A stretch of DNA of 64,000 bases, taken from assembly GCA_020832905.1 (NCBI GenBank), contig JAJHRG010000001.1, positions 474,903 through 538,902 of the forward strand. Reading direction: 5' to 3'. The notes beneath the pieces are model-generated. The model saw only the letters and a list, made by a program, of their open reading frames with translations, did no database searches and had not been told where the DNA came from. The translations under genes were made by a program, and so were the position numbers. Shown one piece after another: positions 2,096-42,234 of the stretch. Within the stretch, counting starts at the first letter, position 1; every line of letters begins with the position of its first letter. This stretch comes from Thermoproteota archaeon (GTDB lineage Archaea; Thermoproteota; Methanomethylicia; Methanomethylicales; Methanomethylicaceae).

Positions 2096-2146
2096 CTTTA
2101 AGACTAAAGATTTATAGATTTTTTATATTTTAATTTTTCTAATTTT

Positions 2147-2165
2147 AAAACGTTAATTATAAAAG
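2147..2165 (+). promoter_or_regulatory. Putative BRE/TATA promoter element for the 2201 operon
   Basis: 'AAAACGTTAATTATAAAAG' lies about 37-55 nt upstream of the TTG start at 2201. An AGAGGGG Shine-Dalgarno sits at about 2188-2194. A similar AACGTTATAA element precedes cstA. Confidence 0.3.
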
Positions 2166-2200
2166 TTTGTCTTCTCTAATACTATTAAGAGGGGAATGAT

Positions 2201-3763
2201 TTGAGCGATCCAGTTTTAAAAGAACTTGAAGCAATCGTAGGCCCTGATAATGTCATATCAGATCCAGCAAGAATTTTTGCTGAAGTCTATGATGCATGGC
2301 TTCAAATATTTCCAGGAAAACCTCCAAAAATGCCAAAATATATTGTTAGACCAGCAAATGAATTTGAAGTACAAGATATTGTATTAATGGCAAATAGATA
2401 TAAAATACCAATACAAGTAGCAAGTAATTATAGCTATAAACTTCCATGCTATGGTGGTATATTACTTCAAACAGTAAGAATGAATAGAATACATGAAGTA
2501 AATGTTGATGAAGGATATGCTGTTATTGATGCTGGTGTTACTTTTAATCAATTCTATAGATATTTAAGATCAAGAAATATAGATCTTACTATTCCTACAA
2601 CAACAGCTCCTCCAAATACTTCAATTGTTGCTAATTTCTTATTCAAAGGAATTGGAATGAGTATGACATCAATAAGTGATGGAAATCAAGAAGCAATAAT
2701 GGCTTTAGAAGTTGTATTACCTACTGGTGAAATAGTACATACAGGATCATGGGCTCTTCAAACTGCCTCATGTAAATATACATTTGATTTAGGATTTGGT
2801 CCTCAATTATCAAGAATATTTGTAGGTGCTTTAGGAACATTAGGTATTGTTACAAAAGCAGCAATAAAGCTTTGGCCAAAGCCAAAAGCATTAACTGTTA
2901 AGTTCCTAGGTATGAAAAAATGTGAAGATCTTGCAAAACATCTAAGTAAGATAATGTATACAAAGCTTGCTCCAAATAGTTCAGGAGGTCATTGGTTATT
3001 ACTTGTCTTACATGCTACAAACTTAGCTCCATATTGGGGATTTGAACAAAATAAGAAATTATATCAAATAACAGATGAAGATATTGTGAAGATGAGAGAA
3101 TACTATGGATTCCCTGGAGATGGTACACAATACTTCTATATTCTTGCATGTACACCTCATTATCAATCTGAAGATGAAGCAAAATTATGGGAAAAACTAT
3201 GGTCAAATTACATATCATCAAATCCTGAAATAATAGAACTTACAGAAGATAATTGTCCTGGCTTAAAGTTTGGAGAAATAGAAGCTTCTATTAAGATGTA
3301 TGGAGGAATTGGTGAAGGAGAACCAGGAAATCAACGTATAAGATATTGTGGATGGACTCCTGGACACATATGGAGCTTTTATGGTAGTGTTGGAAATAAA
3401 GCTCTTCCAAAACTTCATGAAATAACTTGGAATACTGGAAGAAAGTATGGATTAATTCCTGCATTACATGTTATAGGTATAAATGAAGGAAGAGTATCAC
3501 ATGTAAGATATATGGTACCAATAGAACGTGGTGATGATGAAGGTATAAGAAGATATGCAGGATTCTTCAGTGAAGTTATTCCAAGAGTTATTCGTGAAGG
3601 AGGATTTGTACCTGCTAGATGCTTTGGTTTAGGAGCTAAAATTGTTTCACAACACATGGATCCTGGCTTCTTTGAATTATATCGTAGAATAAAGAAGGCA
3701 CTAGATCCAAATAATATAATGGCTCCTTGGTTAGGTTTTAATATACCATTTGAATATGAGTAG
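2201..3763 (+). CDS. FAD-linked oxidase/dehydrogenase, GlcD/D-lactate dehydrogenase-like (divergent), copy A
   Basis: 520 aa, TTG start. It has the layout of a VAO/PCMH FAD-binding domain ('PKYIVRPANEFEVQDIVLMANRYKIPIQV', 'AVIDAGVTF', 'GTLGIVTKAAIKL') and a C-terminal 'LDPNNIMAP' typical of the GlcD family. The canonical GGGTS loop is not conserved. Confidence 0.8.
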   Translation: MSDPVLKELEAIVGPDNVISDPARIFAEVYDAWLQIFPGKPPKMPKYIVRPANEFEVQDIVLMANRYKIPIQVASNYSYKLPCYGGILLQTVRMNRIHEVNVDEGYAVIDAGVTFNQFYRYLRSRNIDLTIPTTTAPPNTSIVANFLFKGIGMSMTSISDGNQEAIMALEVVLPTGEIVHTGSWALQTASCKYTFDLGFGPQLSRIFVGALGTLGIVTKAAIKLWPKPKALTVKFLGMKKCEDLAKHLSKIMYTKLAPNSSGGHWLLLVLHATNLAPYWGFEQNKKLYQITDEDIVKMREYYGFPGDGTQYFYILACTPHYQSEDEAKLWEKLWSNYISSNPEIIELTEDNCPGLKFGEIEASIKMYGGIGEGEPGNQRIRYCGWTPGHIWSFYGSVGNKALPKLHEITWNTGRKYGLIPALHVIGINEGRVSHVRYMVPIERGDDEGIRRYAGFFSEVIPRVIREGGFVPARCFGLGAKIVSQHMDPGFFELYRRIKKALDPNNIMAPWLGFNIPFEYE

Positions 3764-3772
3764 GTGATAAAT

Positions 3773-5077
3773 ATGGGAGAGGTTGAAAGAAAAATTCCAT
3801 TTATGATTCATAAAAATATAGAATTTGTACCATTTATTAGTCATGCAAGTTTTGATAAAACTCCAAGAGAATGGGTAAACATAAAGTTTCCAAAAGATGA
3901 TGAATATCCAGATTTAGCAGTAGCAAAATTTGAAGCAATAAGATGTTGGGCTTGTGGACAATGTGAACTTTCCTATATGGCAAATTGGGCAATGAACTGT
4001 CCATCTGCTACTTTTCCAGCAAATTATAGAAAAGCAGCATATAGAGGTCAAGGAAAGCATATGATTGTCTTAGGTTTATTACAAGGATTTATAGAACCAT
4101 CACCTGAAATTGTTCATGTTGCTTACTTCTGTAATCTATGTGGAAATTGTACAATTCAATGCAGTATGGGTATTGGAAGTGATCCTGTTATTTCAGCAAT
4201 GGCTTTAAGAAGAATGCTTGTTAAACTTGGAATGGGACCACTTCCTGCTCATAAACGTTTTGCAGAATATATTAAGAAATATCATAATCCTTATGGAGAA
4301 CCTCATGAAAATAGATTTGCTTGGTTAAAGAAGAAAATTGAAAAGAAAAAAGCAGATATTGTATATTTTGCAGGATGTACAGGTCCATATAGAACTCCTG
4401 AAGTATGTGAAGCAACAGTTAATCTATTAGAATTAGCAAATGCAGATTTTACAGTATTATATGGAGATGAATGGTGTTGTGGATCTCCATTATATATGGT
4501 TGGATTATGGGAAGAAGCAAAAGAAACATTAGAACATGATATATCAGTAATAGAAAGCTTAGGTGCCTCTAAAGTAATTACATCTTGTGCTGGTTGCTTT
4601 AGACAACTTCATGAAGGATATAAAAAATTAGGAATATCAAAACCATCATTTGAAGTATTACATTCATCTCAATTATTTGCAGAATATTTAAACTCAGGTA
4701 AATTAAAACCAAAATCAACTCCAACTGATAAAGTAGTTACATATCATGATCCATGTCATTTAGGAAGACATGTTGGTGTATTTGATGAGCCAAGAGAAGT
4801 ACTTGCTAATATTCCAGGATTAAAATTCATTGAATTTGAAAGAACTGCTCATAATGCATGGTGTTGTGGTGCTGGAGCTGGTGTAATGTCAGGATTTCCT
4901 GAATTAGCAAGATTTGCAGCAAGTGAAAGATTAAAAGAAGCAAAAGGAATAGGTGCAAACTATGTATCAAGTGCATGTCCATTCTGTGAATTAAATCTTA
5001 AAAGAACTGAAGATGCTATGAAATTTGGTATAGAAATTGGAGATATATTATTACTATTAGAAAAATCATTAAGGTGA
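3773..5077 (+). CDS. Fe-S oxidoreductase with two CCG cysteine-rich domains (GlcF/HdrD-like), copy A
   Basis: Ferredoxin-type 'CWACGQC...NCP' and 'CNLCGNCTIQC', then 'WCCGSPL' and 'WCCGAGAG' CCG-type motifs plus 'YHDPCHLGR'. The track start 3764 (GTG) is replaced by ATG 3773, which follows a GGTGAT Shine-Dalgarno overlapping the upstream stop. Confidence 0.8.
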   Translation: MGEVERKIPFMIHKNIEFVPFISHASFDKTPREWVNIKFPKDDEYPDLAVAKFEAIRCWACGQCELSYMANWAMNCPSATFPANYRKAAYRGQGKHMIVLGLLQGFIEPSPEIVHVAYFCNLCGNCTIQCSMGIGSDPVISAMALRRMLVKLGMGPLPAHKRFAEYIKKYHNPYGEPHENRFAWLKKKIEKKKADIVYFAGCTGPYRTPEVCEATVNLLELANADFTVLYGDEWCCGSPLYMVGLWEEAKETLEHDISVIESLGASKVITSCAGCFRQLHEGYKKLGISKPSFEVLHSSQLFAEYLNSGKLKPKSTPTDKVVTYHDPCHLGRHVGVFDEPREVLANIPGLKFIEFERTAHNAWCCGAGAGVMSGFPELARFAASERLKEAKGIGANYVSSACPFCELNLKRTEDAMKFGIEIGDILLLLEKSLR

Positions 5078-5082
5078 TAATC

Positions 5083-5238
5083 TTGGGATTTGAATATAAT
5101 ATGCAATGTAGAGATTGTAGACATAAATGGTCTTCTAATAAAATTTCATCATCTATAAAATGTCCAAAATGTGGTTCACATAATGTAAGATTACTTCCTT
5201 CAAGTAACTTTAAAACATTTATTGCACCATATGCATAA
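5083..5238 (+). CDS. Small zinc-ribbon protein (about 45-51 aa), not in ORF track
   Basis: My translation from ATG 5101 is MQCRDCRHKWSSNKISSSIKCPKCGSHNVRLLPSSNFKTFIAPYA, with a CxxC...CxxC pair. An in-frame TTG at 5083 lies 5 nt after an AGGTGA Shine-Dalgarno that overlaps the stop of the preceding gene. Confidence 0.4.
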   Translation: MGFEYNMQCRDCRHKWSSNKISSSIKCPKCGSHNVRLLPSSNFKTFIAPYA

Positions 5239-5252
5239 TTTTTTTATTTTTT

Positions 5253-6416
5253 TTAAATAATTTTTCCATTATATGATAATTTAAAATGTTTTCCTGATAA
5301 TTCAATAAATCCCATATTTATTAATTCCTTTAATGTTTCTCTATCTTTTATATTATTTAAATTTTCTAGACATTTTTTGTATTTTTCATCTAAGTAAATT
5401 GTACCATTTGTTAGTAATCTTATAATATTTCCACATATGTTATATGTTCTATCATTTTCAGCATTCCATGGATCTATTTCCATTATATCAAGACCAATAA
5501 TATTTACATTTTTTTCAAAAATTAAAAGTAATGCTTTGTAAATTTCTGCTTCTTTTAATCCTTCTACATTTAAAAATTTACTTCCATATAATGCTTTTCT
5601 TGCACCAATATCTATATCAATTGATATGTAAACATTATTACTTAAATATGAAAGAATACTTTTAATAGCTTCTTCTACTCCTAATGAATCTATAATTCTT
5701 CTATGAATTATTTTTATTCCTTCTTTTTCTAATGTCTTATACTGATTAACAAATTCTCTTACTCTTGGATCTTTTATTTTTTCTAATTTTTCAGAAGGAT
5801 AATCTATAGGACCAAATACAATTATCTTTTCTATAATTCCTTCATAAAATAAATGATATAAAAAAGATCCACTATTATAACTGTTCTTCCTACCTATTGG
5901 ACTAAATACATAATCTTTTGCTTTATATCCATATACTTCATAATTTGCCTCATTTTCCATCATGTAACTTATAAGATTATTTCTAATTGGTGATGGAATT
6001 CCATCAAAATGAGAATCAAATACTATTAATGTCATATCATTAAATCTATTAGATAGTTCATCAATTACTCCACCACTCATTGAATGATCAATTCCAATCA
6101 TAAGTGGTTTTTCCATATTCTTAACAAAATCTCTTACTTTACTTCTATATTCTCTACAACCATCAGAATCTAAAAATACTTCAAAATTTATTGGTGTAAG
6201 CATTATTAAATCTTCTTCATCTGGATATATAGATAACCAACTTTCTATAGGTAATTCTCCATAGTACTTAATATCAATTCCTTGAATTTCTTTTAGTTTT
6301 AAAATTACTTCAATTGGATTTTTTGGTTTTTTCCCTGAGATAATACTATTTATTTTTTTATTTATTGAATCACCACCTTCATCAGGATCAAGTAAAACTT
6401 CAAATAATGACCACAT
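5253..6416 (-). CDS. Arginase/agmatinase/formiminoglutamase-fold metallohydrolase (divergent ureohydrolase family), copy A
   Basis: 387 aa. The ureohydrolase metal-ligand pattern is retained: 'IGIDHS' (His), 'FDSHFD' (DxHxD), 'SIDIDIG' (DxD) and 'DIMEIDP'. There is a non-canonical N-terminal region of about 100 aa and a C-terminal extension of about 45 aa. Confidence 0.7.
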   Translation of the reverse strand: MWSLFEVLLDPDEGGDSINKKINSIISGKKPKNPIEVILKLKEIQGIDIKYYGELPIESWLSIYPDEEDLIMLTPINFEVFLDSDGCREYRSKVRDFVKNMEKPLMIGIDHSMSGGVIDELSNRFNDMTLIVFDSHFDGIPSPIRNNLISYMMENEANYEVYGYKAKDYVFSPIGRKNSYNSGSFLYHLFYEGIIEKIIVFGPIDYPSEKLEKIKDPRVREFVNQYKTLEKEGIKIIHRRIIDSLGVEEAIKSILSYLSNNVYISIDIDIGARKALYGSKFLNVEGLKEAEIYKALLLIFEKNVNIIGLDIMEIDPWNAENDRTYNICGNIIRLLTNGTIYLDEKYKKCLENLNNIKDRETLKELINMGFIELSGKHFKLSYNGKII

Positions 6417-6582: not shown

Positions 6583-8451
6583 ATGAAAGGCGGATATATG
6601 GGTAAAATTCTAAGAATAGATCTTACAACTCAGAAAGTTTCAGAATCTCCATTACCTGAAGAATATGTTAAGAAGTACGTTGGTGGAAGAGGAATTGCTG
6701 CAAGAATTCTTTATGATATAATGAAACCTGGTACAGATCCATTCTCTCCAGAAAATAAAATGGTTTGGGGTACTGGACCTCTAACGGGTTTACCTGTTCA
6801 AGCAGCTTCAAGTGGTTGGGTTGTTGTTACAAGATCTCCACTTACTTACACATACTTTAGAAATCGATGTGTAAGTAATTTTGGAATAATGTTAAAGAAA
6901 GCTGGTTATGACTTTATGATAATAGAAGGAAAAGCAGAAAAACCTACTTATATTTACATAAATGATGGTAATGTAGAATTTGGTGATGCTTCTTCTCTTT
7001 GGGGTACTACTACTGATTTAGCTCAACATATACTAAAAGAACATATAATAAGAAATCCAAAAGCAGAAACAGCTGTTATAGGTCCTGCTGGAGAAAGACT
7101 TGTTAGATATGCTATTGTTCAGTCTGGTACAAGACAATTAGGTAGAGGTGGAATAGGTGCAGTAATGGGATCAAAGAACTTAAAAGGAGTTATTGTTTAT
7201 GGAGAGAAATCAATTCCAATAGCTAATGAAGAATTACTTAAAGAACTTGTTAAAGAGCAAGTAAAACAACTTGCTACATCACATGGTGCAAAAAGAATGC
7301 AAAGATATGGAACTGCTGCAATTCATGCTTTAATAAATCAAATTGGAGATTATCCACATAAGAACTTTAGAGAAACATTCTTCCCTGATCATGAAAAATT
7401 AGATGGTGAACAAAGAGTTAAAAGAACAATTAGAAATGCTGGGTGTCCTAATTGTTTAATAATGTGTTGGAAATATACATATGTTAAAGAAGGACCATAT
7501 GCTGGTGCTTGGGTCGATGGTCCTGAATATGAGACCTTCTGGTCTTTTGGTGGTCTATTGGGTATATCCAATCTAGATGCAGTTATATATGCAAATCAAC
7601 TTGCAGATCTCTATGGAATAGATACCATATCTGCAGGAAATTGTATTGCTTTTGCTATGGAACTTTTTGAAAAAGGTATAATAACAAAAAAGGATACTGA
7701 TGGTTTAGAATTAACATGGGGAAATGAAAATGCTTTAATAACTTTAGTTAAGAAAATTGCTTTTAGAGAAGGAATCGGTGATATATTAGCAGAAGGTGTT
7801 AAAAGAGCAGCAGAAAAAATTGGAAAAGGTGCTGAATATTATGCAATGCATATAAAAGGTTTAGAGATGCCTGGTTATGATCCAAGACCTGTAAAAGCAC
7901 ATGGACTCGCAATGGTTACATCAAATATTGGAGGAAGTCATGCTCTTGGCTATGGAACACAAGAAGTATTTGGATTACCCACACCAGTAGATAAGTATAC
8001 TATAGAAGGTAAAGGAAAATTAACAGTATACAATCAAAATAGATTAACATGGGGAGAATGTTGTATATGGTGTACTTTTCCAACAAGATCTGAATGGCAT
8101 AAACCAGATTTACTTACTAAAATAGTTAATGCAGCTACAGGAATAGACTTTGGAGGTTGGGAAGAAGCTCTAAAAATAGGCGAAAGAGTATGGAATGTTG
8201 AAAGAGCATTTAATGTCAGAGAAGGATTTGATAGAAGACATGATACACTACCAGAAAGATTCTTAAAGGAACCTATACCCTCAGGACCAGCAAAAGGTCA
8301 AATATTTGAATTAGAGCCTTTACTAAATGAATACTATCAAGCAAGAGGCTGGGATGTAGCTACTGGTCTACCTACAAGAGCTAAACTAGAAGAACTTGGT
8401 CTTAAGGATATAGCTGATGAACTTGAAAAAATGGGTCGTCTGGCTAAATAA
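6583..8451 (+). CDS. aor: Aldehyde:ferredoxin oxidoreductase family (tungstopterin enzyme)
   Basis: 622 aa with 'GKILRIDLT...GGRGIAARILY', 'GPAGERLVRYA', 'EYETFWSFG' and 'DTISAGNCIAFAMELFEKG', typical of the AOR family. ATG 6598 is an alternative start. Confidence 0.92.
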   Translation: MKGGYMGKILRIDLTTQKVSESPLPEEYVKKYVGGRGIAARILYDIMKPGTDPFSPENKMVWGTGPLTGLPVQAASSGWVVVTRSPLTYTYFRNRCVSNFGIMLKKAGYDFMIIEGKAEKPTYIYINDGNVEFGDASSLWGTTTDLAQHILKEHIIRNPKAETAVIGPAGERLVRYAIVQSGTRQLGRGGIGAVMGSKNLKGVIVYGEKSIPIANEELLKELVKEQVKQLATSHGAKRMQRYGTAAIHALINQIGDYPHKNFRETFFPDHEKLDGEQRVKRTIRNAGCPNCLIMCWKYTYVKEGPYAGAWVDGPEYETFWSFGGLLGISNLDAVIYANQLADLYGIDTISAGNCIAFAMELFEKGIITKKDTDGLELTWGNENALITLVKKIAFREGIGDILAEGVKRAAEKIGKGAEYYAMHIKGLEMPGYDPRPVKAHGLAMVTSNIGGSHALGYGTQEVFGLPTPVDKYTIEGKGKLTVYNQNRLTWGECCIWCTFPTRSEWHKPDLLTKIVNAATGIDFGGWEEALKIGERVWNVERAFNVREGFDRRHDTLPERFLKEPIPSGPAKGQIFELEPLLNEYYQARGWDVATGLPTRAKLEELGLKDIADELEKMGRLAK

Positions 8452-8483: not shown

Positions 8484-8759
8484 ATGCCGAAAGTAACTAT
8501 TAAATTTTTTCAAGATATTAGAGAACTAACAGGTACTTCATCAACAGAAATAGAAATTGATAATCCAAAATTTCTTAAAGATATTTTAAATGAAATATCA
8601 AATAAATATCAAAAACTAAGAGATGTTTTTAAAAATATTGAAGGAGAAAATAGATCAGTAATAATATTAGTAAATGGAAGAATGCCTACTCCTTTATCAT
8701 CTACAATTATAAAAGGAGGAGAAGAAATTAGTATTCTTCCTATTGTTGAAGGAGGATAA
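8484..8759 (+). CDS. MoaD/ThiS-family ubiquitin-like small protein ending in Gly-Gly
   Basis: 91 aa. The C-terminus is '...EISILPIVEGG' immediately followed by the stop. It lies directly downstream of aor. Confidence 0.8.
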   Translation: MPKVTIKFFQDIRELTGTSSTEIEIDNPKFLKDILNEISNKYQKLRDVFKNIEGENRSVIILVNGRMPTPLSSTIIKGGEEISILPIVEGG

Positions 8760-8808: not shown

Positions 8809-9852
8809 ATGAAAAAAGAAGAGATGACTCCATATGATCGCTTAATGACTGCTTTTGAAAGAAAAAAACCTGATAGAGTGCCAGTAACTCCTTTTGTAAG
8901 AGAATGGGCAGTAAGACAAGCAGGTTTTAAATTTTCTGAAGTTATGACAAATCCTGAAAAATATGTTTATTCTCAATTATATGCAATAAGAAAATATGGA
9001 TATGATATGGTTCTTGATTTACTTGCTGTACATGCAGAATCTGAAGCTATGGGAAGTATTCTTAAGATACCAGAAGATGCTCCACCATCAGTTGATATAC
9101 CTGCTGTTCAAGATTATTCAAAAGATTTACCTAAATTAAAAATACCTCATCCAAGAAGAGATGGTCGTCTTCCAATTATATTAGAAGGAATACGTAGACT
9201 TAAACAAGCAGTTGGTGGTTATATACCTGTAATGGGTTATGTACAAGCATGTTGGAGACATACATGTATGTTAAGAGGTACTGAAAAAGCTCTTTTAGAT
9301 ATGAAGAAAAATCCTGATCAACTAAAAGAATTAATTGAAATTGCTACTGAGAGTTTAATTGTATATGCTGAAGCTGTTGTTGAAGCAGGTGCAGATTTGA
9401 TATGGGTTTCAGATCCTACATCTTCAGGTGATATGATATCAAGAAAAGCATTTGAAGAATTTGTATTTCCATATTTAAGAAGAGAAATTAGAGCAATAAA
9501 AAGAATGGGTGTTAAAGTATTTTTACATATATGTGGAAATGTAAATGATAGACTAGATCTAATGGCAGATACTGGTGCTGATGCAATAAGTGTAGATGAA
9601 AAAGTAGATTTGGCAAGAGCAAAATCTTTAGTAGGACATAAAGTATGTATTATGGGTAATATTAGTCCAGGGGTTACTTTGCTTCAAAAAACTCCAAAAG
9701 ATGTAGAAGAAGAATGTAAAATTGCTTTAGAAAAAGCCATGGCTGGAGGAGGATTTGTTTTAGCATCAGGATGTATTGTTCCTGCAGCTGCACCTGGTGA
9801 AAATATAGCAGCTATGGTAGAAGCTGCAAGAAAGTATGGTTTCTATGAGTAA
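8809..9852 (+). CDS. URO-D-family corrinoid-dependent methyltransferase (MtaA/CmuA/O-demethylase-type)
   Basis: 347 aa. 'KPDRVPVTPF' N-terminus, 'FLHICGN' and 'ASGCIVPAAAP' Zn-ligand regions of the uroporphyrinogen-decarboxylase-like methyltransferase family. Confidence 0.8.
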   Translation: MKKEEMTPYDRLMTAFERKKPDRVPVTPFVREWAVRQAGFKFSEVMTNPEKYVYSQLYAIRKYGYDMVLDLLAVHAESEAMGSILKIPEDAPPSVDIPAVQDYSKDLPKLKIPHPRRDGRLPIILEGIRRLKQAVGGYIPVMGYVQACWRHTCMLRGTEKALLDMKKNPDQLKELIEIATESLIVYAEAVVEAGADLIWVSDPTSSGDMISRKAFEEFVFPYLRREIRAIKRMGVKVFLHICGNVNDRLDLMADTGADAISVDEKVDLARAKSLVGHKVCIMGNISPGVTLLQKTPKDVEEECKIALEKAMAGGGFVLASGCIVPAAAPGENIAAMVEAARKYGFYE

Positions 9853-9863: not shown

Positions 9864-10508
9864 ATGGAGAAAGAGGAAATTTTTAAAAATCTTGCTAAAT
9901 GTGTTGTAGATGGTGATGAAGAAGGAGCAAAGAAATGGGCAGAAGAAGCTATAAAAGCTGGAATAGATGCTTATGAAGCAATAATGAAGGGATTAGCAGA
10001 AGGAATGAAAGTTGTAAGTGAAAAGTATGAAAAAGGAGAATACTATGTTCCTGAAGTTTTATTATCTGCTTCTGCTATGACTGCAGCAGTAGAAATACTT
10101 AAGCCACATATAAAAGTAGAAAAAGCAGAAAAACCTATTACAATTGTAATTGGAGTTGTTGAAGGAGATATTCATGATATTGGTAAAAATCTAGTAAAAA
10201 TAATGCTAGAAAGTGCTGGATTTAAAGTTATAGATCTTGGTAGAGATGTACCATTATCAAAATTTGTAGAAGAAGCAAAGAAGCATAATGCTGATGTAAT
10301 TGCTATGTCTGCTTTAATGACAACAACAATGCCAGGAATGAAAAAAGTAATCGAATTACTTATAAAAGAAGGATATAGAGATAAAGTAAAAACAATAATT
10401 GGAGGAGCACCAACATCACTAGAATATGCAAAATCTATAGGTGCTGATGCTTGGGCTAAGGATGCATCTGAAGCAGTTGATGTAATTAGAAATCTAGTAG
10501 CTAAATAA
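9864..10508 (+). CDS. Corrinoid (cobalamin-binding) protein, MtaC/MtbC/MttC-like
   Basis: 214 aa. N-terminal helical cap domain, then the B12-binding Rossmann domain with 'EGDIHDIGKNLV' (DxHxxG), 'SALMTTTM' and 'IGGAP'. A GAGGTGAT Shine-Dalgarno lies 3 nt before the ATG. Confidence 0.9.
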   Translation: MEKEEIFKNLAKCVVDGDEEGAKKWAEEAIKAGIDAYEAIMKGLAEGMKVVSEKYEKGEYYVPEVLLSASAMTAAVEILKPHIKVEKAEKPITIVIGVVEGDIHDIGKNLVKIMLESAGFKVIDLGRDVPLSKFVEEAKKHNADVIAMSALMTTTMPGMKKVIELLIKEGYRDKVKTIIGGAPTSLEYAKSIGADAWAKDASEAVDVIRNLVAK

Positions 10509-11188: not shown

Positions 11189-11191
11189 AAA

Positions 11192-12815: not shown

Positions 12816-12830
12816 AATAATAATTAAAAA

Positions 12831-16699: not shown

Positions 16700-17689
16700 A
16701 TGAGTCCAAAAGAAAGAACTTTTAAAATATTAGAAGGAGAAAAAGTAGATAGACCATCTGTTTTATCAGTTACTCAAACTGGTACAGTTGAGTTAATGGA
16801 AGCATCAAATGCTTATTGGCCTGATGCAAATTTTAATGCTGAGCTTATGGCAAAATTAGCAATTGCAGGTCATACAATAGCTAATTTAGAAGGTATAAGA
16901 ATTCCTTTTTGTCTTACTGTATTAGCAGAATCTATGGGTTGTATTATAGATAAAGGAAGAATTGATCGTCAACCATCTATAGCAAAAACATTATATGATC
17001 AAGGAAAAACACCAAAAGTGGAAAATTTACTAGATAGCTATAGAATTCATGTAATTCTTGATGCAATACATAAAATTAAAGAAATGAATTTTAATGTTCC
17101 ATTAATAGTTGGATTTGAAGGTCCTACTACATTAGCAGGTCATTTACTTGGTGTTGAACGACTTTGTTTAATGATGATAAGAAAACCTGAAGAAGTAAAA
17201 AGCTATATAGAAAAAGCAGAAGAAGCATGTGTTATTTATGCAAAAGAACTTATAAAAGAAGGTGCAGATATAATAGTTGTTGCTGATCCTACTGCTTCTC
17301 CATCTGTTATAAGTCCAAAAATGTTTGAAAAATTTTCAAAAGAACCATTAAAATCTATAGCAAAATTAACAAAAAGATCTGTTCTTCATATATGTGGAAA
17401 TGCTACACCAATACTTAATCATATGGCAGAATGTGGATTTTCTGGATTAAGTATAGAAGAAAAAGTAGATTTAAAAACTGCTAAATCTATTTTAAAGGAT
17501 AAAAAAGTTGCTATTATTGGTAATGTTCCTTCTGCTGGAGTTCTACTTAATGGTACTGAAGAAGAAGTTTATAATGTAGCTAAACAAGCTATTGCCTCTG
17601 GTGTAGATATTTTAGCTCCAAGTTGTGGTATAGCTCCACGTACACCTACAAGAAATATTAAAGCAATGGTTAGAGCAGCTATTTCTTAA
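16700..17689 (+). CDS. Methylcobamide:thiol (CoM-type) methyltransferase, MtaA/MtbA-like (URO-D family)
   Basis: 329 aa. 'KVDRPSVLSVTQTGTVELMEASNAYWPDA...IRIPFCLTVLAESMGC...DRQPS' closely follows the MtaA/MtbA N-terminal consensus as I recall it. 'LHICGN' and 'APSCGIAP' are the Zn-ligand regions. Confidence 0.8.
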   Translation: MSPKERTFKILEGEKVDRPSVLSVTQTGTVELMEASNAYWPDANFNAELMAKLAIAGHTIANLEGIRIPFCLTVLAESMGCIIDKGRIDRQPSIAKTLYDQGKTPKVENLLDSYRIHVILDAIHKIKEMNFNVPLIVGFEGPTTLAGHLLGVERLCLMMIRKPEEVKSYIEKAEEACVIYAKELIKEGADIIVVADPTASPSVISPKMFEKFSKEPLKSIAKLTKRSVLHICGNATPILNHMAECGFSGLSIEEKVDLKTAKSILKDKKVAIIGNVPSAGVLLNGTEEEVYNVAKQAIASGVDILAPSCGIAPRTPTRNIKAMVRAAIS

Positions 17690-22953: not shown

Positions 22954-24423
22954 GTGAGTTTTTTGGCAAGAGGAAGCAAAGAAATACTTCAAAAACTTGA
23001 ACAAATTGTTGGTCCTGATTATGTAAGCAATGAAGAAGCAGTACTTTTGCCATATTCTTGGGATTTAACATGGACAGAACCAAGAATGCCTGATTATGTT
23101 GTTATGCCAAAAACAGTTACTGAAATACAACGTATACTAAGATTAGCAAATCATTACAGAATACCAGTAATTCCATATGTAAATGCAACTAATATTGGTG
23201 GATTATGTGTTCCAGAAGAAGGAGGTATTGTAATAGATTTAAAAAGAATGGATAGAATAATAAAAATTGATCCTGAGACATGCTATGCAGTAATAGAACC
23301 AGGAGTAAGTCATGCACAACTTTCAGCTGCACTTAAAGCAACAAATCCACAATGGGAAGGTTATGAATTTTCAAAAGGATTTGAATTTGGATGGGGAGTA
23401 CATCCAGCATCAGCATCTGTTTTAGCTATGGCAATTAATCATGGAATTGGTCATCTTAATGGTAGATTAGGAATTAATAGTCAATTAATTTCAAGTATGG
23501 AAGTAGTACTTCCTACAGGTGAAGTTGTAAAATTAGGATCTTGTGCATTTTCTGATTCATGGCATTCATTCCTTCCATTACCAAGAATGGATGGACTTTT
23601 TGTAGGATGGATGGGAACTACTGGTATTGTAACAAAATTAGGAATATGGATCTTTCCAATAAGACCATACAAAGATGTACTAACAATAGCAGCAGAAACT
23701 GCATACGATATGACAAGATATATGGTTCATTGGCGTCATTATTCATTATGTGATGAAGTTACTGCAGTAAGTTGGTGGTTAGCTCAAATACCTATTCCAT
23801 ATCCATATCAAGAAAAACCAAAAGATGTTCCTGAATGGTTTAGCTATACTGTAATAAGTGGTTGGAGTGAAGAAGAATTAGAATATAAAAGAAAAATGTG
23901 GAAGAAAGTTGTAGAAGAAGAAAGAGCAAGAGGTACAAAATTAATTGATTTTGAATATCCACCTGAAGCAAAAAGAGGAAGAACAGAATTACCAAGTAGA
24001 ATTATAGGATCTACAAAGAATTATTCAAAATCATGTGGTGGAGGATTGGCTTGGCCAGGAACATTTGCACCATGTAAGAGCTGGCCTATATTATATGAAA
24101 AATGGAAGGAAATTTATATACGTCATAATCTATCACCTGCAGTAAGATTTACTGACTTCCAAGGTGCACATTATGGAATGTTAAGAGCAATGACACCATT
24201 TGATAAAAGAGATCCTGATTCTGTAAGAAGAGCTAAAGAAGCTATGATAGAATGTATAAGAGTTGGAATACCATTAGGAATGCTTCCTTATAAGCCACCA
24301 GTAGAATTTGTAAATGAATTAAATGCTAGAGCAGATCCAGGTTATATTTATCTATTAACAAAAATAAAGGATATGTTAGATCCAAATAATATAATGAATC
24401 CAGGTAAATTAGGTATAAGATGA
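22954..24423 (+). CDS. FAD-linked oxidase/dehydrogenase, GlcD-like (divergent), copy B
   Basis: 489 aa, a paralogue of 2201-3763 ('LEQIVGPDYVS', 'PDYVVMPKTVTEIQRILRLANHYRIPV', 'AVIEPGVS', 'GTTGIVTKLGI', 'LDPNNIMNPGKL'). The start is GTG 22954 or TTG 22963; the latter lies 4 nt after an AGGTGAG Shine-Dalgarno. Confidence 0.8.
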   Translation: MSFLARGSKEILQKLEQIVGPDYVSNEEAVLLPYSWDLTWTEPRMPDYVVMPKTVTEIQRILRLANHYRIPVIPYVNATNIGGLCVPEEGGIVIDLKRMDRIIKIDPETCYAVIEPGVSHAQLSAALKATNPQWEGYEFSKGFEFGWGVHPASASVLAMAINHGIGHLNGRLGINSQLISSMEVVLPTGEVVKLGSCAFSDSWHSFLPLPRMDGLFVGWMGTTGIVTKLGIWIFPIRPYKDVLTIAAETAYDMTRYMVHWRHYSLCDEVTAVSWWLAQIPIPYPYQEKPKDVPEWFSYTVISGWSEEELEYKRKMWKKVVEEERARGTKLIDFEYPPEAKRGRTELPSRIIGSTKNYSKSCGGGLAWPGTFAPCKSWPILYEKWKEIYIRHNLSPAVRFTDFQGAHYGMLRAMTPFDKRDPDSVRRAKEAMIECIRVGIPLGMLPYKPPVEFVNELNARADPGYIYLLTKIKDMLDPNNIMNPGKLGIR

Positions 24424-24433
24424 GGTGATGGAA

Positions 24434-25672
24434 ATGGCACTTGTATTAAAGAGAACTGATATGAAAGAATTAGCACAGCTTTATGATAGAATTTCCATGT
24501 GTACACAGTGTGGAAATTGTAAATATGGATATGAATATGGTCCAACTGAAAACTTTGCAGCAATGCTATGTCCTCAAGGAGATAAATATCAATTTGAAGC
24601 ATATAGAGGATCAAAAGGAAAAGCAGCTCTTGCTAAAGGTCTTTTAAGTGGAATGATAGAATGGAGTGATAAAGCAGCACATATCATATTTACATGTATT
24701 GGATGTGGTGCTTGTGTAGAAATGTGTGAAACTGATATCAAAGATTATCTTCAAAGAATGTTTGAAGCTCTTAAAAGTGAAGCTTGGAAACAAAATGTTG
24801 CCATACCTGAAGGTGTAAGAAAATGGAGTAGTACTATTAGAGAAAATCGTAATCCTTACTTAGAGAAACATGAAGATAGACTTAATTGGTTACCAGCTAG
24901 TATAAGAGAAAGTCTTCCAAAGAAAGCTGAATATATATACTTTGTTGGTTGTACTGCCTCATATAGACAAAAAAATATTGCATTAGCTACAGTTAAATTA
25001 TTACAAAAATTAAAAATTGACTTCACAATAGTTCCTGATGAATGGTGTTGTGCATCTCCATTATTAAGAACAGGACAATATGATATAGCAAAAGAATTCA
25101 TAGAGCACAATAGAGAATTACTAGGAAAATATGGTGCAAGTGCATTTATAACTACATGTGCTGGATGTTATAGGACATTATCTATAGACTATCAGAAAGA
25201 TCCTCCAGAAGGATATACAGATAAATTTGGTAAATCTAACTTCAAAGTAATTCATACAATACAATTAGTAGAAGAAATGATAAAGAAAGGTGAAGTAGAA
25301 TTTGAAGGAAGCTTTAATTATGTAGTTACATATCATGATCCATGTCATCTTGGAAGACATGCAAAAGTCTATGATTCTCCACGTAATGTACTACAAGCCA
25401 TACCTGGATTAAAACTTGTTGAAATGTATAGAAGTAAAAAGTTCTCATTCTGTTGTGGTGCTGGTGGAGGAGTAAGAGGAGGATTCCCAGATTATTCAAT
25501 TGAAACAGCAATTAAGCGTATAAGAGAAGCAGAATCTACTGGTGCATCTATAATAACATGTGTTTGTCCATTCTGTTGGAGAAATTTAAATGATGCTATT
25601 AATGCATCTAAATCATCAATGAAAATGATGGATATTACAGAAATACTTGAACCTATAATTAAAAGAAAGTAA
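24434..25672 (+). CDS. Fe-S oxidoreductase with two CCG domains (GlcF/HdrD-like), copy B
   Basis: 'CTQCGNC...LCPQ', 'CIGCGACVEMC', 'WCCASPL', 'FCCGAGGG' and 'YHDPCHLGR'. ATG 24434 lies 5 nt after a GAGGTGA Shine-Dalgarno overlapping the upstream TGA, so track start 24425 is rejected. Confidence 0.8.
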   Translation: MALVLKRTDMKELAQLYDRISMCTQCGNCKYGYEYGPTENFAAMLCPQGDKYQFEAYRGSKGKAALAKGLLSGMIEWSDKAAHIIFTCIGCGACVEMCETDIKDYLQRMFEALKSEAWKQNVAIPEGVRKWSSTIRENRNPYLEKHEDRLNWLPASIRESLPKKAEYIYFVGCTASYRQKNIALATVKLLQKLKIDFTIVPDEWCCASPLLRTGQYDIAKEFIEHNRELLGKYGASAFITTCAGCYRTLSIDYQKDPPEGYTDKFGKSNFKVIHTIQLVEEMIKKGEVEFEGSFNYVVTYHDPCHLGRHAKVYDSPRNVLQAIPGLKLVEMYRSKKFSFCCGAGGGVRGGFPDYSIETAIKRIREAESTGASIITCVCPFCWRNLNDAINASKSSMKMMDITEILEPIIKRK

Positions 25673-25693
25673 TCTTTCTTCTTTTTATTTTTT

Positions 25694-42194: not shown

Positions 42195-42234
42195 AGAAAA
42201 ATTTAAATATTAGCTTTTATTGAATTCTAGTTCA

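Follow-up and report, generated by a model that had tools for sequence, protein, structure and literature searches.

The first two genes of the set described here, for a FAD-binding protein and a CCG-domain Fe-S protein, carry the published name 'glcD/hdrD' (PMC6421429); no mention of an arginase-fold partner was found in the openly accessible literature. A flavoprotein and a CCG subunit coupled to CoM/CoB thiols have a precedent in TfrB, and a known homologue of MtaA, MtpA, is specific for 3-mercaptopropionate (bioRxiv 10.1101/548461). The window analyzed here (the whole stretch of DNA under study, 64,000 nt) comes from a hot-spring methane-producing archaeon of the Methanomethylicia. It contains two old, diverged gene sets, copy A at 2201-6416 and copy B at 22954-26728. 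In each, one gene encodes a FAD_binding_4 flavoprotein, another a HdrD-like Fe-S protein carrying two CCG domains, and the third a protein with the arginase fold. The features discussed below are as follows.

2201..3763, + strand: copy A flavoprotein dehydrogenase, 520 aa, TTG start, VAO/PCMH/D-LDH fold superfamily ('glcD' in the literature)
3773..5077, + strand: copy A HdrD/TfrB-like Fe-S protein, 434 aa, with a ferredoxin-type 2x[4Fe-4S] region and two CCG domains
5083..5238, + strand: zinc-ribbon protein, 51 aa, CxxC-x16-CxxC, copy A-specific and translationally coupled to the CCG gene
5239..5252, no strand: T/A-rich spacer TTTTTTTATTTTTT, read from sequence, separating the convergent zinc-ribbon and arginase-fold genes
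5253..6416, - strand: copy A divergent ureohydrolase, 387 aa (Pfam Arginase PF00491)
6583..8451, + strand: aldehyde:ferredoxin oxidoreductase (AFOR), tungstopterin family (Pfam AFOR_N and AFOR_C, E 4e-139)
8484..8759, + strand: ThiS/MoaD-like small protein, 3' of the AFOR gene (Pfam ThiS, E 3e-12)
8809..9852, + strand: copy A-associated MtaA/CmuA-family methyltransferase, URO-D fold, H-x-C...C zinc site (Pfam URO-D, E 1e-82)
9864..10508, + strand: corrinoid (B12-binding) protein, cognate to the methyltransferase (Pfam B12-binding_2 and B12-binding)
16700..17689, + strand: MtaA, methylcobamide:CoM methyltransferase, ~5 kb upstream of copy B
22954..24423, + strand: copy B flavoprotein dehydrogenase, 489 aa (Pfam), of a large, highly conserved cross-domain family
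24425..25672, + strand: copy B HdrD/TfrB-like Fe-S protein, two CCG domains (Pfam CCG, E 8e-35)
25673..25693, + strand: T-rich 21-nt spacer TCTTTCTTCTTTTTATTTTTT of copy B, between the CCG and arginase-fold genes
25694..26728, + strand: copy B divergent ureohydrolase, 344 aa (Pfam Arginase, 68.6 bits)

Organization of the two copies

An earlier note on this DNA had delimited the ORFs of copy A and recognized the same three-gene content in both copies; all of these ORFs are found there, and the Pfam domain sets of A and B are identical. Its proposal that the flavoprotein and CCG genes are translationally coupled in both copies is borne out by the Shine-Dalgarno over the upstream stop in each. 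In copy A (TAGGTGATAAATATG), GGTGAT overlaps the TAG that ends the flavoprotein gene and lies 6 nt ahead of ATG 3773, and in copy B, GAGGTGA lies over the TGA stop (the copy B CCG gene probably starts at ATG 24434 rather than GTG 24425). The zinc-ribbon ORF likewise has the Shine-Dalgarno of its own that had been described, as AGGTGA at 5072-5077 overlaps the CCG-gene TGA stop, 5 nt ahead of TTG 5083.

This CxxC...CxxC ORF of 51 codons is a real gene: it occurs in frame in every copy-A locus found elsewhere. The protein is 69-98% identical among copy-A loci (most start with ATG where the window has TTG), and its codon differences, summed over all pairs, comprise 1025 synonymous versus 548 non-synonymous. 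Its Pfam matches are sub-threshold only (HypA C-terminal zinc ribbon, 28.6 versus 28.9 bits; Zn_ribbon_8).

Archaeal terminators are oligo-T tracts, and for this reason the spacer at 5239-5252 is probably a two-way termination signal. In copy B, where all three genes lie on the + strand, no Shine-Dalgarno was found in the spacer at 25673-25693, which is likely a transcription attenuator or terminator. The Methanosuratincola arginase-fold gene sits behind an oligo-T tract homologous to this spacer, and transcript depth falls at the same place.

Divergence of copies A and B

By BLASTP, A and B share 27% identity in the flavoprotein (523 columns, E 3e-40), 39% in the CCG protein (E 6e-84) and 37% in the arginase-fold protein (E 1e-61), values that chance does not explain and that are much too low for a recent duplication, in agreement with the old, diverged copies of the earlier note. 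The three alignments are co-linear and include the shared blocks quoted there. Copy A forms an isolated clade in all three families (27-29% identical to all others in the flavoprotein, 37% and 37% in the other two), and its flavoprotein is 85-98% identical in the other copy-A loci. In each family the nearer relatives of copy B are orthologues from other phyla, not copy A, and for this reason the A/B split is ancient. For example, the copy B flavoprotein, which has at least 2400 homologues at E<1e-20, shares 68% identity with Archaeoglobi and ~53% with Desulfobacterota. The copy B arginase-fold protein has 92 homologues, the majority from Methanomethylicia and Methanofastidiosa, and is 42-45% identical to Methanofastidiosum proteins versus 37% to copy A.

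The family trees (simple NJ, without bootstrap support) are congruent, with copy A isolated and copy B near other phyla in all three, and pairwise distances are correlated among the families (Mantel r 0.72-0.91). The copies are deep paralogues, as had been claimed, but not the products of a simple within-genome duplication: either the split is older than the phyla or one of the two was acquired. In the flavoprotein, about 25 columns, all candidate active-site positions, hold one residue throughout A and another throughout B. Because these residues differ, copies A and B probably take different substrates, which was also the expectation of the earlier note.

Domain assignments and active-site residues

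The copy A flavoprotein matches FAD_binding_4 (E 1e-19) and the end of FAD-oxidase_C in Pfam. For both flavoproteins the top NCBIfam match is TIGR00387 (glcD), at 82-92 bits (copy A, 82), where the cut-off is 568. True GlcD-like neighbours retain H398, H405 and E442 (GHVGDGNFH...TGEHG), the metal triad of D-LDH, but it is absent from both flavoproteins, the corresponding columns being E/R/R in copy A and G/R/K in copy B. The missing triad and the low glcD scores rule against a D-lactate or glycolate dehydrogenase identity. Mouse D-LDH is among the top Foldseek matches of the flavoprotein (TM 0.79). The family profile of the copy B flavoprotein aligns to the p-cresol methylhydroxylase (PCMH) PchF over its full length (E 2e-46), with Tyr at the position of PCMH Tyr384 and Tyr-Lys at Tyr473-Arg474; an equivalent of Tyr95 is absent. 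The copy B flavoprotein resembles PCMH rather than GlcD.

The copy A CCG protein matches Pfam CCG in two stretches (E 9e-36) and Fer4_8. Among NCBIfam models the CCG proteins match TfrB best, with 190 bits in copy A (cut-off 385) and 221 bits, also under the cut-off, in copy B. Against the PDB, the copy B protein best matches a 1042-aa 'iron-sulfur-binding reductase' and HdrB.

The copy A arginase-fold protein matches PF00491 at 79.8 bits (E 3e-22; cut-off 22). A conserved region of ~100 aa lies at its N-terminus, and its C-terminus is extended by ~45 aa that are missing from the copy B protein. The binuclear-metal ligands H111, D134, H136, D138, D267 and D269, together with the guanidinium-binding E313, are invariant in 56 sequences, and the AF2 model (pLDDT 95) matches arginase, agmatinase and guanidinopropionase equally. 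With these residues kept and a confident model, the ureohydrolase looks catalytically competent. As a known NCBIfam equivalog (arginase, agmatinase, HutG) it was rejected, every score being far under cut-off. The closest genome additionally has a canonical SpeB-like PF00491 gene near copy A. The arginase-fold gene is solitary in Methanofastidiosa, Helarchaeota and others, and its product would therefore be a pathway partner and not a subunit; in several euryarchaeal loci the gene is divergently paired with a Lrp/AsnC regulator.

Genomic neighborhood within and beyond Methanomethylicia

Both arrangements recur in relatives: the convergent copy-A order with the zinc ribbon in 11/11 copy-A loci found, and the co-directional copy-B order in >20 Methanomethylicia loci. 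Many anaerobic archaea and bacteria far outside this lineage also keep the trio together, in varying order and orientation. They span at least 8 phyla, with Bathyarchaeia, Hecatellales, Archaeoglobi, Promethearchaeota, Desulfobacterota and Thermoleophilia among them, and this spread supports the earlier claim of a functional link despite the inversion. In 47 of 80 non-redundant arginase-fold loci, a FAD and/or CCG gene lies within 10 kb, and the adjacency outlasts inversion (copy A), divergent arrangement (loci L040 and L090) and the insertion of one to several genes.

The three-gene module of the earlier note stands insofar as the trio is kept together; the real set is larger and also includes a MtaA-family methyltransferase, a corrinoid protein and an aldehyde oxidoreductase. 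A methyltransferase of this family and an aldehyde-oxidising enzyme often adjoin the trio. The AFOR gene adjoins copy A in every copy-A locus, and AFOR or ALDH recurs near the module in other phyla; no aldehyde oxidoreductase was found near copy B in the window. The ThiS/MoaD-like protein probably belongs to the AFOR unit, with a putative role in cofactor maturation (in the Archaeoglobi locus L044 a ThiS-Fer4 fusion is the ORF after AFOR). The methyltransferase at 8809-9852 scores 212 bits against NCBIfam mtaA_cmuA (under the cut-off of 235), keeps the LHIC motif and the C-terminal Cys, and falls in a clade apart from the copy-B MtaA (NJ tree); its corrinoid protein exceeds the TIGR02370 cut-off (230 versus 215 bits). 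The MtaA at 16700-17689 exceeds that of the MtaA equivalog (412 versus 400 bits) and is orthologous to Archaeoglobales URO-D genes located between the CCG and arginase-fold genes (NJ tree). The MtaA zinc site is kept in all URO-D neighbours.

Four bacterial orthologues of the copy-B flavoprotein were sampled, and each has CCG, MtaA-like, arginase-fold and ALDH genes beside it; a third FAD-CCG lineage is likewise associated with arginase-fold, AFOR, B12-binding and URO-D genes. The bacterial versions look catabolic because of their uptake transporters (PurT-like NAT, LIV-type ABC, SSF symporter or AA_permease), substrate-type regulators (GntR/FCD, upstream in Desulfobacterota, PucR-type or IclR) and MMSDH-type ALDH. 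Bacterial clusters also carry a radical-SAM/GNAT/AIRS-like trio. The ALDHs of loci L029, L050 and L085 exceed the MMSDH cut-off (TIGR01722), and malonate decarboxylase genes adjoin the arginase-fold gene in L090.

Transcription in Methanosuratincola

Transcription of the FAD-CCG pair in two cultured species of Methanosuratincola is roughly 10-400x that of its neighbours, as judged by contig k-mer depth, a poor measure of expression: 4e4-1e5 versus 1e3-4e3 in an M. petrocarbonis transcriptome, and 2000-5000 versus 20-200 in four runs of M. verstraetei. The arginase-fold transcript is roughly 10-30-fold (LWZ-6) and 100-400-fold (LCB70) lower than that of FAD-CCG. The high FAD-CCG levels were seen in methyl-reducing, methanol/H2 cultures, where they exceed the expectation for a side pathway and so point to a core energy role. 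Given its weak transcript and solitary occurrence, the arginase-fold gene may be tied to FAD-CCG more loosely than as a member of the same pathway.

Discussion

We favor, tentatively and at somewhat less than an even chance, the reading that this region, as copy A, represents a metabolic gene set of ancient origin in which a substrate dehydrogenase and a guanidino hydrolase serve one pathway. We know of no single metabolite that requires a guanidino hydrolase, an S-methyl transferase and a FAD-CCG dehydrogenase together. The pair could instead be the main heterodisulfide reductase of Methanomethylicia, with a reduced cofactor (e.g. F420H2) as putative donor and the arginase-fold enzyme in an accessory, housekeeping or repair role. 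HdrABC/Mvh are reported absent from Methanomethylicia MAGs (bioRxiv 10.1101/2022.08.18.504445), so that another heterodisulfide reductase is needed, and the very deep transcription in both cultured species and the oligo-T tract ahead of the arginase-fold gene agree with such a role. The full-length PCMH alignment of the copy-B flavoprotein, with its Tyr384-position Tyr and Tyr-Lys pair, also speaks for it: the C5 methylene of F420H2 is benzylic and para to the 8-hydroxyl, and its oxidation would follow PCMH-like quinone-methide chemistry. However, orthologues with identical invariant active-site columns occur in the catabolic-looking bacterial operons and the Tyr95 equivalent is missing, and we consider this explanation unlikely, if well worth keeping in view. 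Much less probable is the D-lactate (or glycolate) dehydrogenase implied by the glcD/hdrD annotation, which would reduce heterodisulfide with lactate beside an unrelated arginase-fold neighbour. That annotation was made by analogy to Bathyarchaeota and Archaeoglobus (PMC6421429), and glcD as best family match, the mouse D-LDH similarity and the GntR/FCD regulators of Desulfobacterota, like glcC and lldR, are in its favor; it is contradicted by the low glcD scores, by the absent triad, by an arginase-fold adjacency kept through phyla and gene orders, and by M. petrocarbonis LWZ-6, which has copy B and for which lactate can serve neither as electron donor nor as energy source (PMC12244365).

Two further explanations concern the arginase-fold protein. 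Its solitary occurrences, Lrp/AsnC pairing and separate, weak transcription would suit an independent ureohydrolase (acting on arginine, agmatine or aminopropylagmatine) that shared regulation or long-lived synteny keeps in place. This is rather improbable, as the adjacency survives rearrangement in at least 8 phyla and three FAD-CCG lineages, a canonical SpeB-like gene is also at hand near copy A, and the NCBIfam scores are far under cut-off. The RiPP arginase OspR converts peptidyl-arginine to ornithine, and a comparable maturase of a protein or cofactor in the FAD-CCG complex is conceivable: a ~100-fold lower transcript suits a catalyst acting on an abundant partner, and the radical-SAM/GNAT/AIRS-like trio could be maturases as well. 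With the gene solitary in several lineages, no precursor peptide evident, and conserved Arg residues and a ureohydrolase Glu that suit a small-molecule substrate equally, we give this the least credence of all.

For the preferred reading of one shared pathway, we infer the substrates, the order of steps, and the route and acceptor of the electrons as follows. The dehydrogenase would have two subunits. Its flavoprotein would accept a hydride from some small organic substrate, probably an anion, and its TfrB/HdrD-like subunit would pass electrons by way of two ferredoxin-type [4Fe-4S] clusters to those held by the two CCG domains. In copy A the zinc ribbon would be a small accessory subunit. The ureohydrolase would act on a guanidino compound of the same pathway and release its amidino group as urea, the MtaA-family zinc methyltransferase and corrinoid protein would perform a methyl-thiol step, and the aldehyde product would be oxidised by AFOR (copy A) or by a malonate-semialdehyde-type ALDH (many bacteria, Archaeoglobales). 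As candidate substrates we propose C3 acids with an omega substituent, X-CH2-CH2-COO- (X = guanidino, amino, methylthio or thiol), converted to malonate semialdehyde; in methanogens, C2-sulfonate isosteres may replace them. The ALDHs above the MMSDH cut-off and the malonate decarboxylase genes of L090 speak for such a C3 theme. In bacteria the electrons would go to a membrane cytochrome b/HdrD-type module instead, whereas the CCG domains in this methanogen would reduce a disulfide, CoM-S-S-CoB.

Gene content of the two copies

The window (G+C content about 28%) contains two copies, A and B, of a three-gene set encoding a FAD flavoprotein, a Fe-S protein with CCG domains (together the FAD-CCG pair) and an arginase-fold protein. 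The genes are as follows.

2201-3763, + strand: copy A FAD_binding_4 protein, 520 aa
3773-5077, + strand: copy A CCG protein, 434 aa, with a ferredoxin-type dicluster region and two CCG domains
5083-5238, + strand: copy A CxxC...CxxC ORF, 51 codons
5253-6416, - strand: copy A Arginase-family protein, 387 aa, convergent
22954-24423, + strand: copy B flavoprotein
24425-25672, + strand: copy B CCG protein
25694-26728, + strand: copy B arginase-fold protein

Both copies have the same three Pfam signatures, and in pairwise BLASTP the A and B proteins are co-linear over nearly their full lengths, with 27% identity for the flavoproteins (E = 3e-40), 39% for the CCG proteins (E = 6e-84) and 37% for the arginase-fold proteins (E = 1e-61). 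The ORFs, signatures and alignments confirm the two diverged three-gene copies proposed in the earlier note, and the junctions with a Shine-Dalgarno motif over the upstream stop codon read in the sequence as it had described them.

Scanning the 64-kb window for tRNAs and Rfam families gave no match, so there is no riboswitch (e.g. a guanidine riboswitch) near either copy. A scan for sigma-70 promoters and hairpin terminators showed no enrichment; these bacterial-type signals are irrelevant to an archaeal host. The Aminotran_4 gene upstream of copy A (1202-2095) was considered as a pathway member and set aside, since, as an IlvE equivalog, it probably has no part in the pathway. The window also has a PaaK-like (phenylacetate-CoA ligase type) AMP-binding gene (42453-43661) between two sodium:solute symporter genes (40625-42181 and 43805-45421), which together span 40625-45421.

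Conservation and history of the arrangement

We scanned one genome per species and obtained 78 loci encoding arginase-fold relatives, onto which the window proteins were mapped and in which all ORFs were clustered. The copy-A order is FAD, CCG, zinc ribbon (the 51-codon ORF), arginase-fold gene on the opposite strand, AFOR (aldehyde:ferredoxin oxidoreductase), a ThiS-like gene, a URO-D gene of the MtaA/CmuA family (URO-D being the Pfam family of MtaA-type methyltransferases) and a corrinoid protein gene. This arrangement is found in 11 out of 11 copy-A loci, all within one Methanomethylicia clade; nine genomes have copy A, and in eight of them copy B is present too. The copy-B arrangement is shared by more than 20 loci of Methanomethylicia, among them loci from complete genomes (the cultured M. 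petrocarbonis LWZ-6 and M. verstraetei LCB70), i.e. both arrangements recur in related genomes. Beyond this class, the copy-B arrangement is seen in other archaea (Bathyarchaeia, Hecatellales in divergent orientation, Archaeoglobi, a 'Halobacteria' MAG and Promethearchaeota) and in bacteria (Desulfobacterota and one actinomycete MAG). A FAD and/or CCG gene lies at most 10 kb from the arginase-fold gene in 47 of 80 non-redundant loci, and the arginase-fold gene stands alone in Methanofastidiosa and Helarchaeota.

At E<1e-20, the copy-B flavoprotein family comprises at least 2400 members (identity in Desulfobacterota about 53%), and all four bacterial members whose contigs were examined cluster with CCG, MtaA-like, arginase-fold and ALDH genes. 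A third FAD-CCG lineage, in a compared locus (L090), shows identities of about 28%/32% to A and B alike and is again linked with an arginase-fold gene, AFOR, a corrinoid protein and URO-D. Adjacency kept despite inversion, divergence and gene insertion, in three paralogous lineages and two domains, is strong evidence of a functional link among the three families rather than chance, as the earlier note had argued.

Homologues of the arginase-fold protein come nearly all from Candidatus Methanomethylicia (Verstraetearchaeota), followed by Methanofastidiosa, Promethearchaeota and others; the closest genome is the hot-spring MAG WYZ-LMO11 (94-98% protein identity). On a metagenomic contig (L091:9102-15420), a copy-B type FAD-CCG-arginase-fold set with a methylmalonate-semialdehyde dehydrogenase (MMSDH)-like ALDH adjoins a further FAD-CCG-FAD set of distant lineages, so such paralogues are also stacked in DNA other than the window's genome. 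At about position 10000 of four loci from euryarchaeal MAGs (L047, L055, L062 and L072), the arginase-fold gene is divergently paired with a Lrp/AsnC-type regulator of the same family as 35246-35668 in the window.

NJ trees and group-mean identities agree across all three families. Copy A is an isolated clade, whose identity to all others is 27-29% for the flavoprotein and about 37% for both the CCG and the arginase-fold protein. The copy-B flavoprotein shares 68% identity with Archaeoglobi, 60-65% with Bathyarchaeia, Hecatellales and 'Halobacteria' and 51-53% with bacteria; the CCG protein shares 53-54% with archaeal orthologues, and the arginase-fold protein 43-48% with orthologues in other phyla. 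Mantel tests on the distance matrices gave correlations between the families of r = 0.75, 0.72 and 0.91 (p<=0.0005), to which the shared species phylogeny contributes. Taken together, the isolated copy-A clade, the closeness of copy B to other phyla and the correlated distances show that the A/B split is ancient and congruent. The congruent trees that a co-evolving module calls for were thus found in all three families, and the duplication is not recent, copy B being nearer to orthologues in other phyla than to copy A; given this congruence and the conserved adjacency, the overall picture of a linked old paralogous module is sound. URO-D is a fourth family repeating the A/B pattern: the gene at 16700-17689 groups with Archaeoglobales URO-D genes sited between the CCG and arginase-fold genes, and the copy-A gene (8809-9852) belongs to a separate clade.

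The arginase-fold protein and the zinc ribbon

The arginase-fold proteins match PF00491 with 79.8 (A) and 68.6 (B) bits (cut-off 22), and the six binuclear-metal ligands (H111, D134, H136, D138, D267 and D269) and E313 are invariant in 56 sequences. The AF2 (AlphaFold) model (pLDDT 95) matches arginase, agmatinase, guanidinopropionase and formiminoglutamase with a Foldseek probability of 1.0 (target-normalised TM 0.6-0.75). Matches to these four and to proclavaminate amidinohydrolase are nearly equal (TM about 0.5, 14-18% identity); Foldseek and PDB profile searches singled out no substrate class, all ureohydrolase classes matching equally. Scores against the NCBIfam ureohydrolase equivalogs fall below the cut-offs (agmatinase, 61.6 vs 174 bits; arginase, 36.8 vs 228; HutG, 33.3 vs 229), and an exhaustive profile search among 1.84 billion representatives gave 147 clusters at E<=1e-30. 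The invariant ligands, confident model, sub-cut-off equivalog scores and small number of clusters indicate a small, distinct and probably active ureohydrolase subfamily. The protein shares with ureohydrolases (guanidinopropionase/guanidinobutyrase, PDB 3niq and 3nio, among them) the fold, the six metal ligands and the Glu of (D)xxE(x)xP, but unlike the known ones it has an additional, conserved region at the N-terminus, and its insert between motifs two and three is longer. In its C-terminal part (5253-5400), the copy-A protein has an extension of about 45 residues, modelled as helices and a small beta unit, which is absent in B.

In every copy-A locus, the zinc ribbon ORF separates the CCG gene from the arginase-fold gene, which is convergent. 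The ORF has the consensus M(G/P)FEYxxxCRDCRxxWxSNKISSSIKCPxCGSHNxxLLPS..FKxF..YA; most orthologues start with ATG, and the window has TTG at 5083. Between the window and L010 (a locus of another genome), 57 of 150 nucleotides differ, giving 26 synonymous and 14 non-synonymous codon changes. The copy-A zinc ribbon is a real gene. Its Pfam matches are all sub-threshold, the best being the C-terminal part of HypA (28.6 vs 28.9 bits, profile positions 68-104 only). A role as a HypA-like nickel loader was considered and is unsupported, as this match is sub-threshold and covers the zinc-ribbon part only. The ORF has no MHE N-terminus and thus no HypA N-terminal Ni site, and no counterpart was found in copy-B loci. 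GdmH is a Ni-dependent guanidine hydrolase with HypA/HypB-like loaders (GhaA/GhaB), and PDB 7esr and 7oi1 (listed under GdmH) are among the PDB profile-search matches. As in the GdmH system, copy A pairs an arginase-fold enzyme with a nearby small zinc-ribbon/HypA-like gene; unlike that system, copy A has neither a HypB-like GTPase nor the N-terminal Ni motif, and copy B lacks any such gene.

The flavoproteins differ from GlcD

Metagenomic papers, which count 1-3 copies per MAG, use the names glcD and hdrD for the first two genes and propose a role for the pair in reducing CoM-S-S-CoB, with lactate or in an Fpo-HdrD-GlcD complex (PMC6421429; bioRxiv 10.1101/2022.08.18.504445). The 'GlcD/HdrD' of Methanomethylicia, Bathyarchaeota and Archaeoglobus are the very genes studied here, copy B being the widespread pair. 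By Pfam, the flavoproteins contain the FAD_binding_4 domain (Foldseek TM 0.79 to mouse D-LDH), and in structure the copy-B model (pLDDT 80) is as close to mouse D-LDH as it is to the VAO/PCMH/eugenol-oxidase group (TM 0.79-0.81 to the latter). Foldseek and PDB profile searches could not split D-LDH from VAO/PCMH, but a residue-level comparison did. The glcD equivalog scores only 82.4 and 91.7 bits (cut-off 567.9), with the FAD domain alone matched. We used the D-LDH metal triad (His-x6-His ... Glu; H398, H405 and E442 of mouse D-LDH) as reference. A canonical GlcD-like gene in another locus (L073) aligns GHAGSGNLH...TGEHG to these residues, and the same columns hold G/R/K in 27/27 copy-B and E/R/R in 12/12 copy-A sequences. 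Unlike what their published name describes, these proteins therefore lack the D-LDH triad and score far under the glcD cut-off. M. petrocarbonis LWZ-6, for which lactate is neither electron donor nor energy source (PMC12244365), carries copy B (locus L056), in agreement with the exclusion of copy B from GlcD/D-LDH.

In sequence comparisons, the VAO/PCMH group is the best match of the copy-B flavoprotein and of its family profile (37 sequences, A1 among them), PchF and the VAO/eugenol oxidase group (PDB 1dii, 1wve, 8s7p and 5fxd) being the best PDB matches. Positions 7-476 of this copy-B family profile align to PchF 18-514 (E = 1.8e-46), cap domain included. The column of the FAD-linking Tyr384 of PchF has an invariant Tyr (Tyr357) in copy B and Ser or Thr in copy A, and that of Tyr473-Arg474 has Y446-K447 in copy B and A-R in copy A. 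The phenolate-binding set of PchF (Y95, Y473, R474) is not kept: the Y95 position (Tyr108 in VAO) is deleted, and copy A has a tyrosine at neither the Tyr384 nor the Tyr473 position. The cytochrome c subunit of PCMH is likewise absent, the downstream partner being an HdrD-like CCG Fe-S protein in all loci. With the triad columns replaced and the PCMH residues incomplete, neither copy is a member of the GlcD/D-LDH family or a typical PCMH. The many conserved Arg, His and Lys residues suggest that the substrate may be anionic rather than phenolic. About 25 columns, each of them invariant inside clade A and inside clade B, distinguish the two copies; this lends indirect, sequence-based support to the earlier idea that the two copies act on different substrates.

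CCG proteins and MtaA-type methyltransferases

The CCG proteins contain two PF02754 stretches and Fer4_8, and their translations have complete CxxCxxC...CP, CxxCxxCxxxC, GC...CCG...CxxC and PC...CCG...CPFC motifs. Their best matches are TfrB (thiol:fumarate reductase; the top NCBIfam match), LdhH, GlpC and HdrB (also a PDB match), all under cut-off. They resemble TfrAB, HdrD/HdrB and GlcF/YdiJ-type CCG proteins in combining a ferredoxin-type dicluster, two CCG domains and a flavoprotein partner. Unlike in TfrAB, this partner has the FAD_binding_4 fold rather than the fumarate-reductase fold; the CCG proteins score under every equivalog cut-off, and the archaeal loci have no membrane anchor gene.

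All URO-D neighbours keep the H-x-C...C zinc site. With 412 bits, the one at 16700-17689 exceeds the cut-off of the MtaA equivalog (400) and is a true MtaA by this NCBIfam measure. The one at 8809-9852, also with the zinc motif, scores 193 bits against that cut-off and 212-218 against family cut-offs of 235-244, and is thus a member of the MtaA family only. The URO-D proteins share the zinc site with MtaA and MtpA, a MtaA homologue specific for 3-mercaptopropionate (bioRxiv 10.1101/548461), but bacterial and copy-A members fall under the cut-offs. A DUF169 (COG2043) gene (17679-18440) lies on the strand opposite to the MtaA gene and overlaps its end; this position next to MtaA is kept in L037, L038 and L071. 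Also syntenic in copy-A loci are an ABC-type ATPase-like gene downstream of the copy-A corrinoid gene (10517-11188), a gene for a 239-aa Fer4_16 protein (12096-12815) and two genes for conserved proteins without Pfam match (11192-12109 and 12831-13793). The genes of 10517-13793 could be candidates for the missing substrate methyltransferase and corrinoid activator.

Gene clusters in bacteria and other archaea

The Desulfobacterota/Thermoleophilia cluster starts with a GntR/FCD, PucR-type or IclR regulator and a PurT-like NAT transporter (PDB 7tak, E = 2e-78) or LIV-type ABC system, followed by FAD, CCG, an MtaA-like gene (zinc site intact), the arginase-fold gene and an ALDH that scores above the cut-off for CoA-acylating methylmalonate/malonate-semialdehyde dehydrogenase (MMSDH, TIGR01722). 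It ends with a gene for a helical protein of about 145 aa and a radical-SAM/GNAT/AIRS-like trio (MSMEG_0568 / MSMEG_0567 / sll0787 type). A cytochrome b/multihaem/HdrD-like membrane module is divergently transcribed from the cluster, and some loci also have MtrH-like, corrinoid and RACo genes. This cluster looks like a catabolic operon, with a carbon skeleton ending at malonate semialdehyde or malonate. In Archaeoglobales, URO-D is fused to a corrinoid domain and sits between the CCG and arginase-fold genes.

Several features of these loci were also seen. The NAT transporter gene is inside the cluster at L085:13028-14793, L086:8420-9847 and L049:7002-8531 (53% identity between Desulfobacterota and Thermoleophilia); in Desulfobacterota loci it is followed by a conserved membrane protein of about 79 aa with two helices, and loci without it have a LIV-type ABC system, SSF symporter or AA_permease. 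The helical protein has no Pfam family and always follows the MMSDH-type ALDH, in bacteria and Archaeoglobales alike, as in the loci below.

L085:18736-19179, helical protein of about 145 aa
L029:12608-13063, helical protein of about 145 aa
L050:4914-5336, helical protein of about 145 aa
L089:9283-9714, helical protein of about 145 aa

The radical-SAM gene (MSMEG_0568) is fused or adjacent to the GNAT gene (MSMEG_0567/Sll0786), with the sll0787 AIRS-like gene, at L085:19703-21446, L029:13156-15719 and L086:20014-21437. This trio is otherwise known from the Nit1C cluster, and the literature links it only to cyanide/nitrile assimilation, with no mechanism; its AIRS-like protein also scores strongly against 'methanogenesis marker 2'. 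The divergent module of Desulfobacterota (L085:109-8862, L088:611-8922 and L089:1-6333) resembles Tmc/Hmc-type transmembrane complexes and encodes a small ferredoxin, a protein of about 435 aa in which the N-terminal domain is all that is present of AFOR, a BPL_N-like protein, two multihaem cytochromes, cytochrome b and a large CCG protein; Thermoleophilia have a NarI-like variant. At L090:9361-17026, a malonate decarboxylase set (MdcA-like, ACP, carboxyltransferases, MdcG and biotin proteins) is directly downstream of the arginase-fold gene, which is divergent from an AA_permease-FAD-CCG-AFOR-B12-URO-D operon.

Expression in cultured relatives

In the M. petrocarbonis metatranscriptome (L056), the k-mer depth is 4e4-1e5 over FAD and CCG, about 1.2e3 over upstream genes and about 3.4e3 over the arginase-fold and downstream genes. 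In four M. verstraetei runs (L066), FAD-CCG has a depth of 2000-5000 vs 20-200 for its neighbours; in two of the four, the high-depth contig stops just short of the CCG stop codon and the arginase-fold depth is 7-50. Contig k-mer depth is a rough measure, and the effect is at least one to two orders of magnitude, in two species. Both genomes have a long oligo-T tract directly 3' of the CCG stop, where copy B of the window has a 21-nt T-rich spacer. The depth contrast and the oligo-T tract indicate that FAD-CCG is a very highly expressed bicistron and the arginase-fold gene a separate, weakly expressed unit. FAD-CCG is thus among the most strongly transcribed loci of its surroundings in two independent cultures.

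Possible substrates and roles

As a working model, the flavoprotein would be the hydride acceptor of a substrate dehydrogenase, wired by the HdrD/TfrB-like subunit to a disulfide or membrane acceptor, and the guanidino-group hydrolase, methyl-thiol transferase and aldehyde oxidoreductase would act on the same small-molecule family. The substrates may be an X-CH2-CH2-COO- series (X = guanidino, amino, methylthio or thiol) whose common end point is malonate semialdehyde, and sulfonate isosteres (taurocyamine, taurine, methyl-CoM/CoM, sulfoacetaldehyde) offer a possible route to relevance in a methanogen. We infer this model, which is chemically coherent, from the gene content. Guanidinopropionase is itself an arginase-fold enzyme, and we know of no single compound that needs all partners of the module. 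Among other substrates considered, methoxylated aromatics found no support, the zinc site of the URO-D proteins being of the thiol type. The PurT-like transporter and PucR-type regulators hinted at modified purines or cytokinin-type bases, which do not explain all partners; neither do methoxylated aromatics, thymine-methyl oxidation, creatine or methylguanidine, or polyamines.

The main rival of this substrate model gives FAD-CCG a core energy role, and better explains its very high expression in methanol/H2 cultures. The lactate model of the literature, in which the pair is GlcD/HdrD, is the least compatible with the data, as the triad is absent and LWZ-6 cannot use lactate as electron donor (PMC12244365). 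We also give a small chance to a bolder proposal, that the copy-B pair is the main heterodisulfide reductase of Thermoproteota methyl-reducing methanogens via PCMH-type hydride abstraction from a donor of para-hydroxybenzyl type (e.g. F420H2), the whole set acting on CoM and C2-sulfonate relatives. If so, the ureohydrolase, MtaA-type methyltransferase and aldehyde oxidoreductase would act on taurocyamine, taurine, methyl-CoM and sulfoacetaldehyde, which are isosteres of the 3-guanidinopropionate, beta-alanine, MMPA/3-mercaptopropionate and malonate semialdehyde of the bacterial clusters, and a previously unrecognised thiol-cofactor metabolism would be common to methanogens and sulfate reducers.

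The gene pair has thus been reported before, and its published name is probably incorrect. What appears to be new is that the pair has conserved ureohydrolase and methyltransferase partners, that its A/B(/C) paralogy is deep, that copy A includes a zinc ribbon and that residue-level comparison excludes the flavoproteins from the GlcD family. In the searchable literature we found no description of the arginase-fold, MtaA-like or aldehyde-oxidoreductase partners, nor of the deep A/B split, and no paper there combines 'arginase' with 'HdrD' or with 'Methanosuratincola'.

Methanomethylicia are the first cultured methanogens outside Euryarchaeota, and 'HdrD/GlcD' is one proposed answer to how they regenerate CoM and CoB. 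Our results exclude the flavoprotein as a canonical lactate/glycolate dehydrogenase and place the pair in a larger archaeal and bacterial set, with a rare ureohydrolase subfamily, an MtaA-type methyltransferase and a malonate-semialdehyde-type ALDH, of which some genomes keep two deeply diverged versions. They turn a vague annotation into concrete enzyme assays, and point to an anaerobic pathway in Desulfobacterota and Thermoleophilia, possibly for guanidino/methylthio C3 acids from DMSP or phosphagens.
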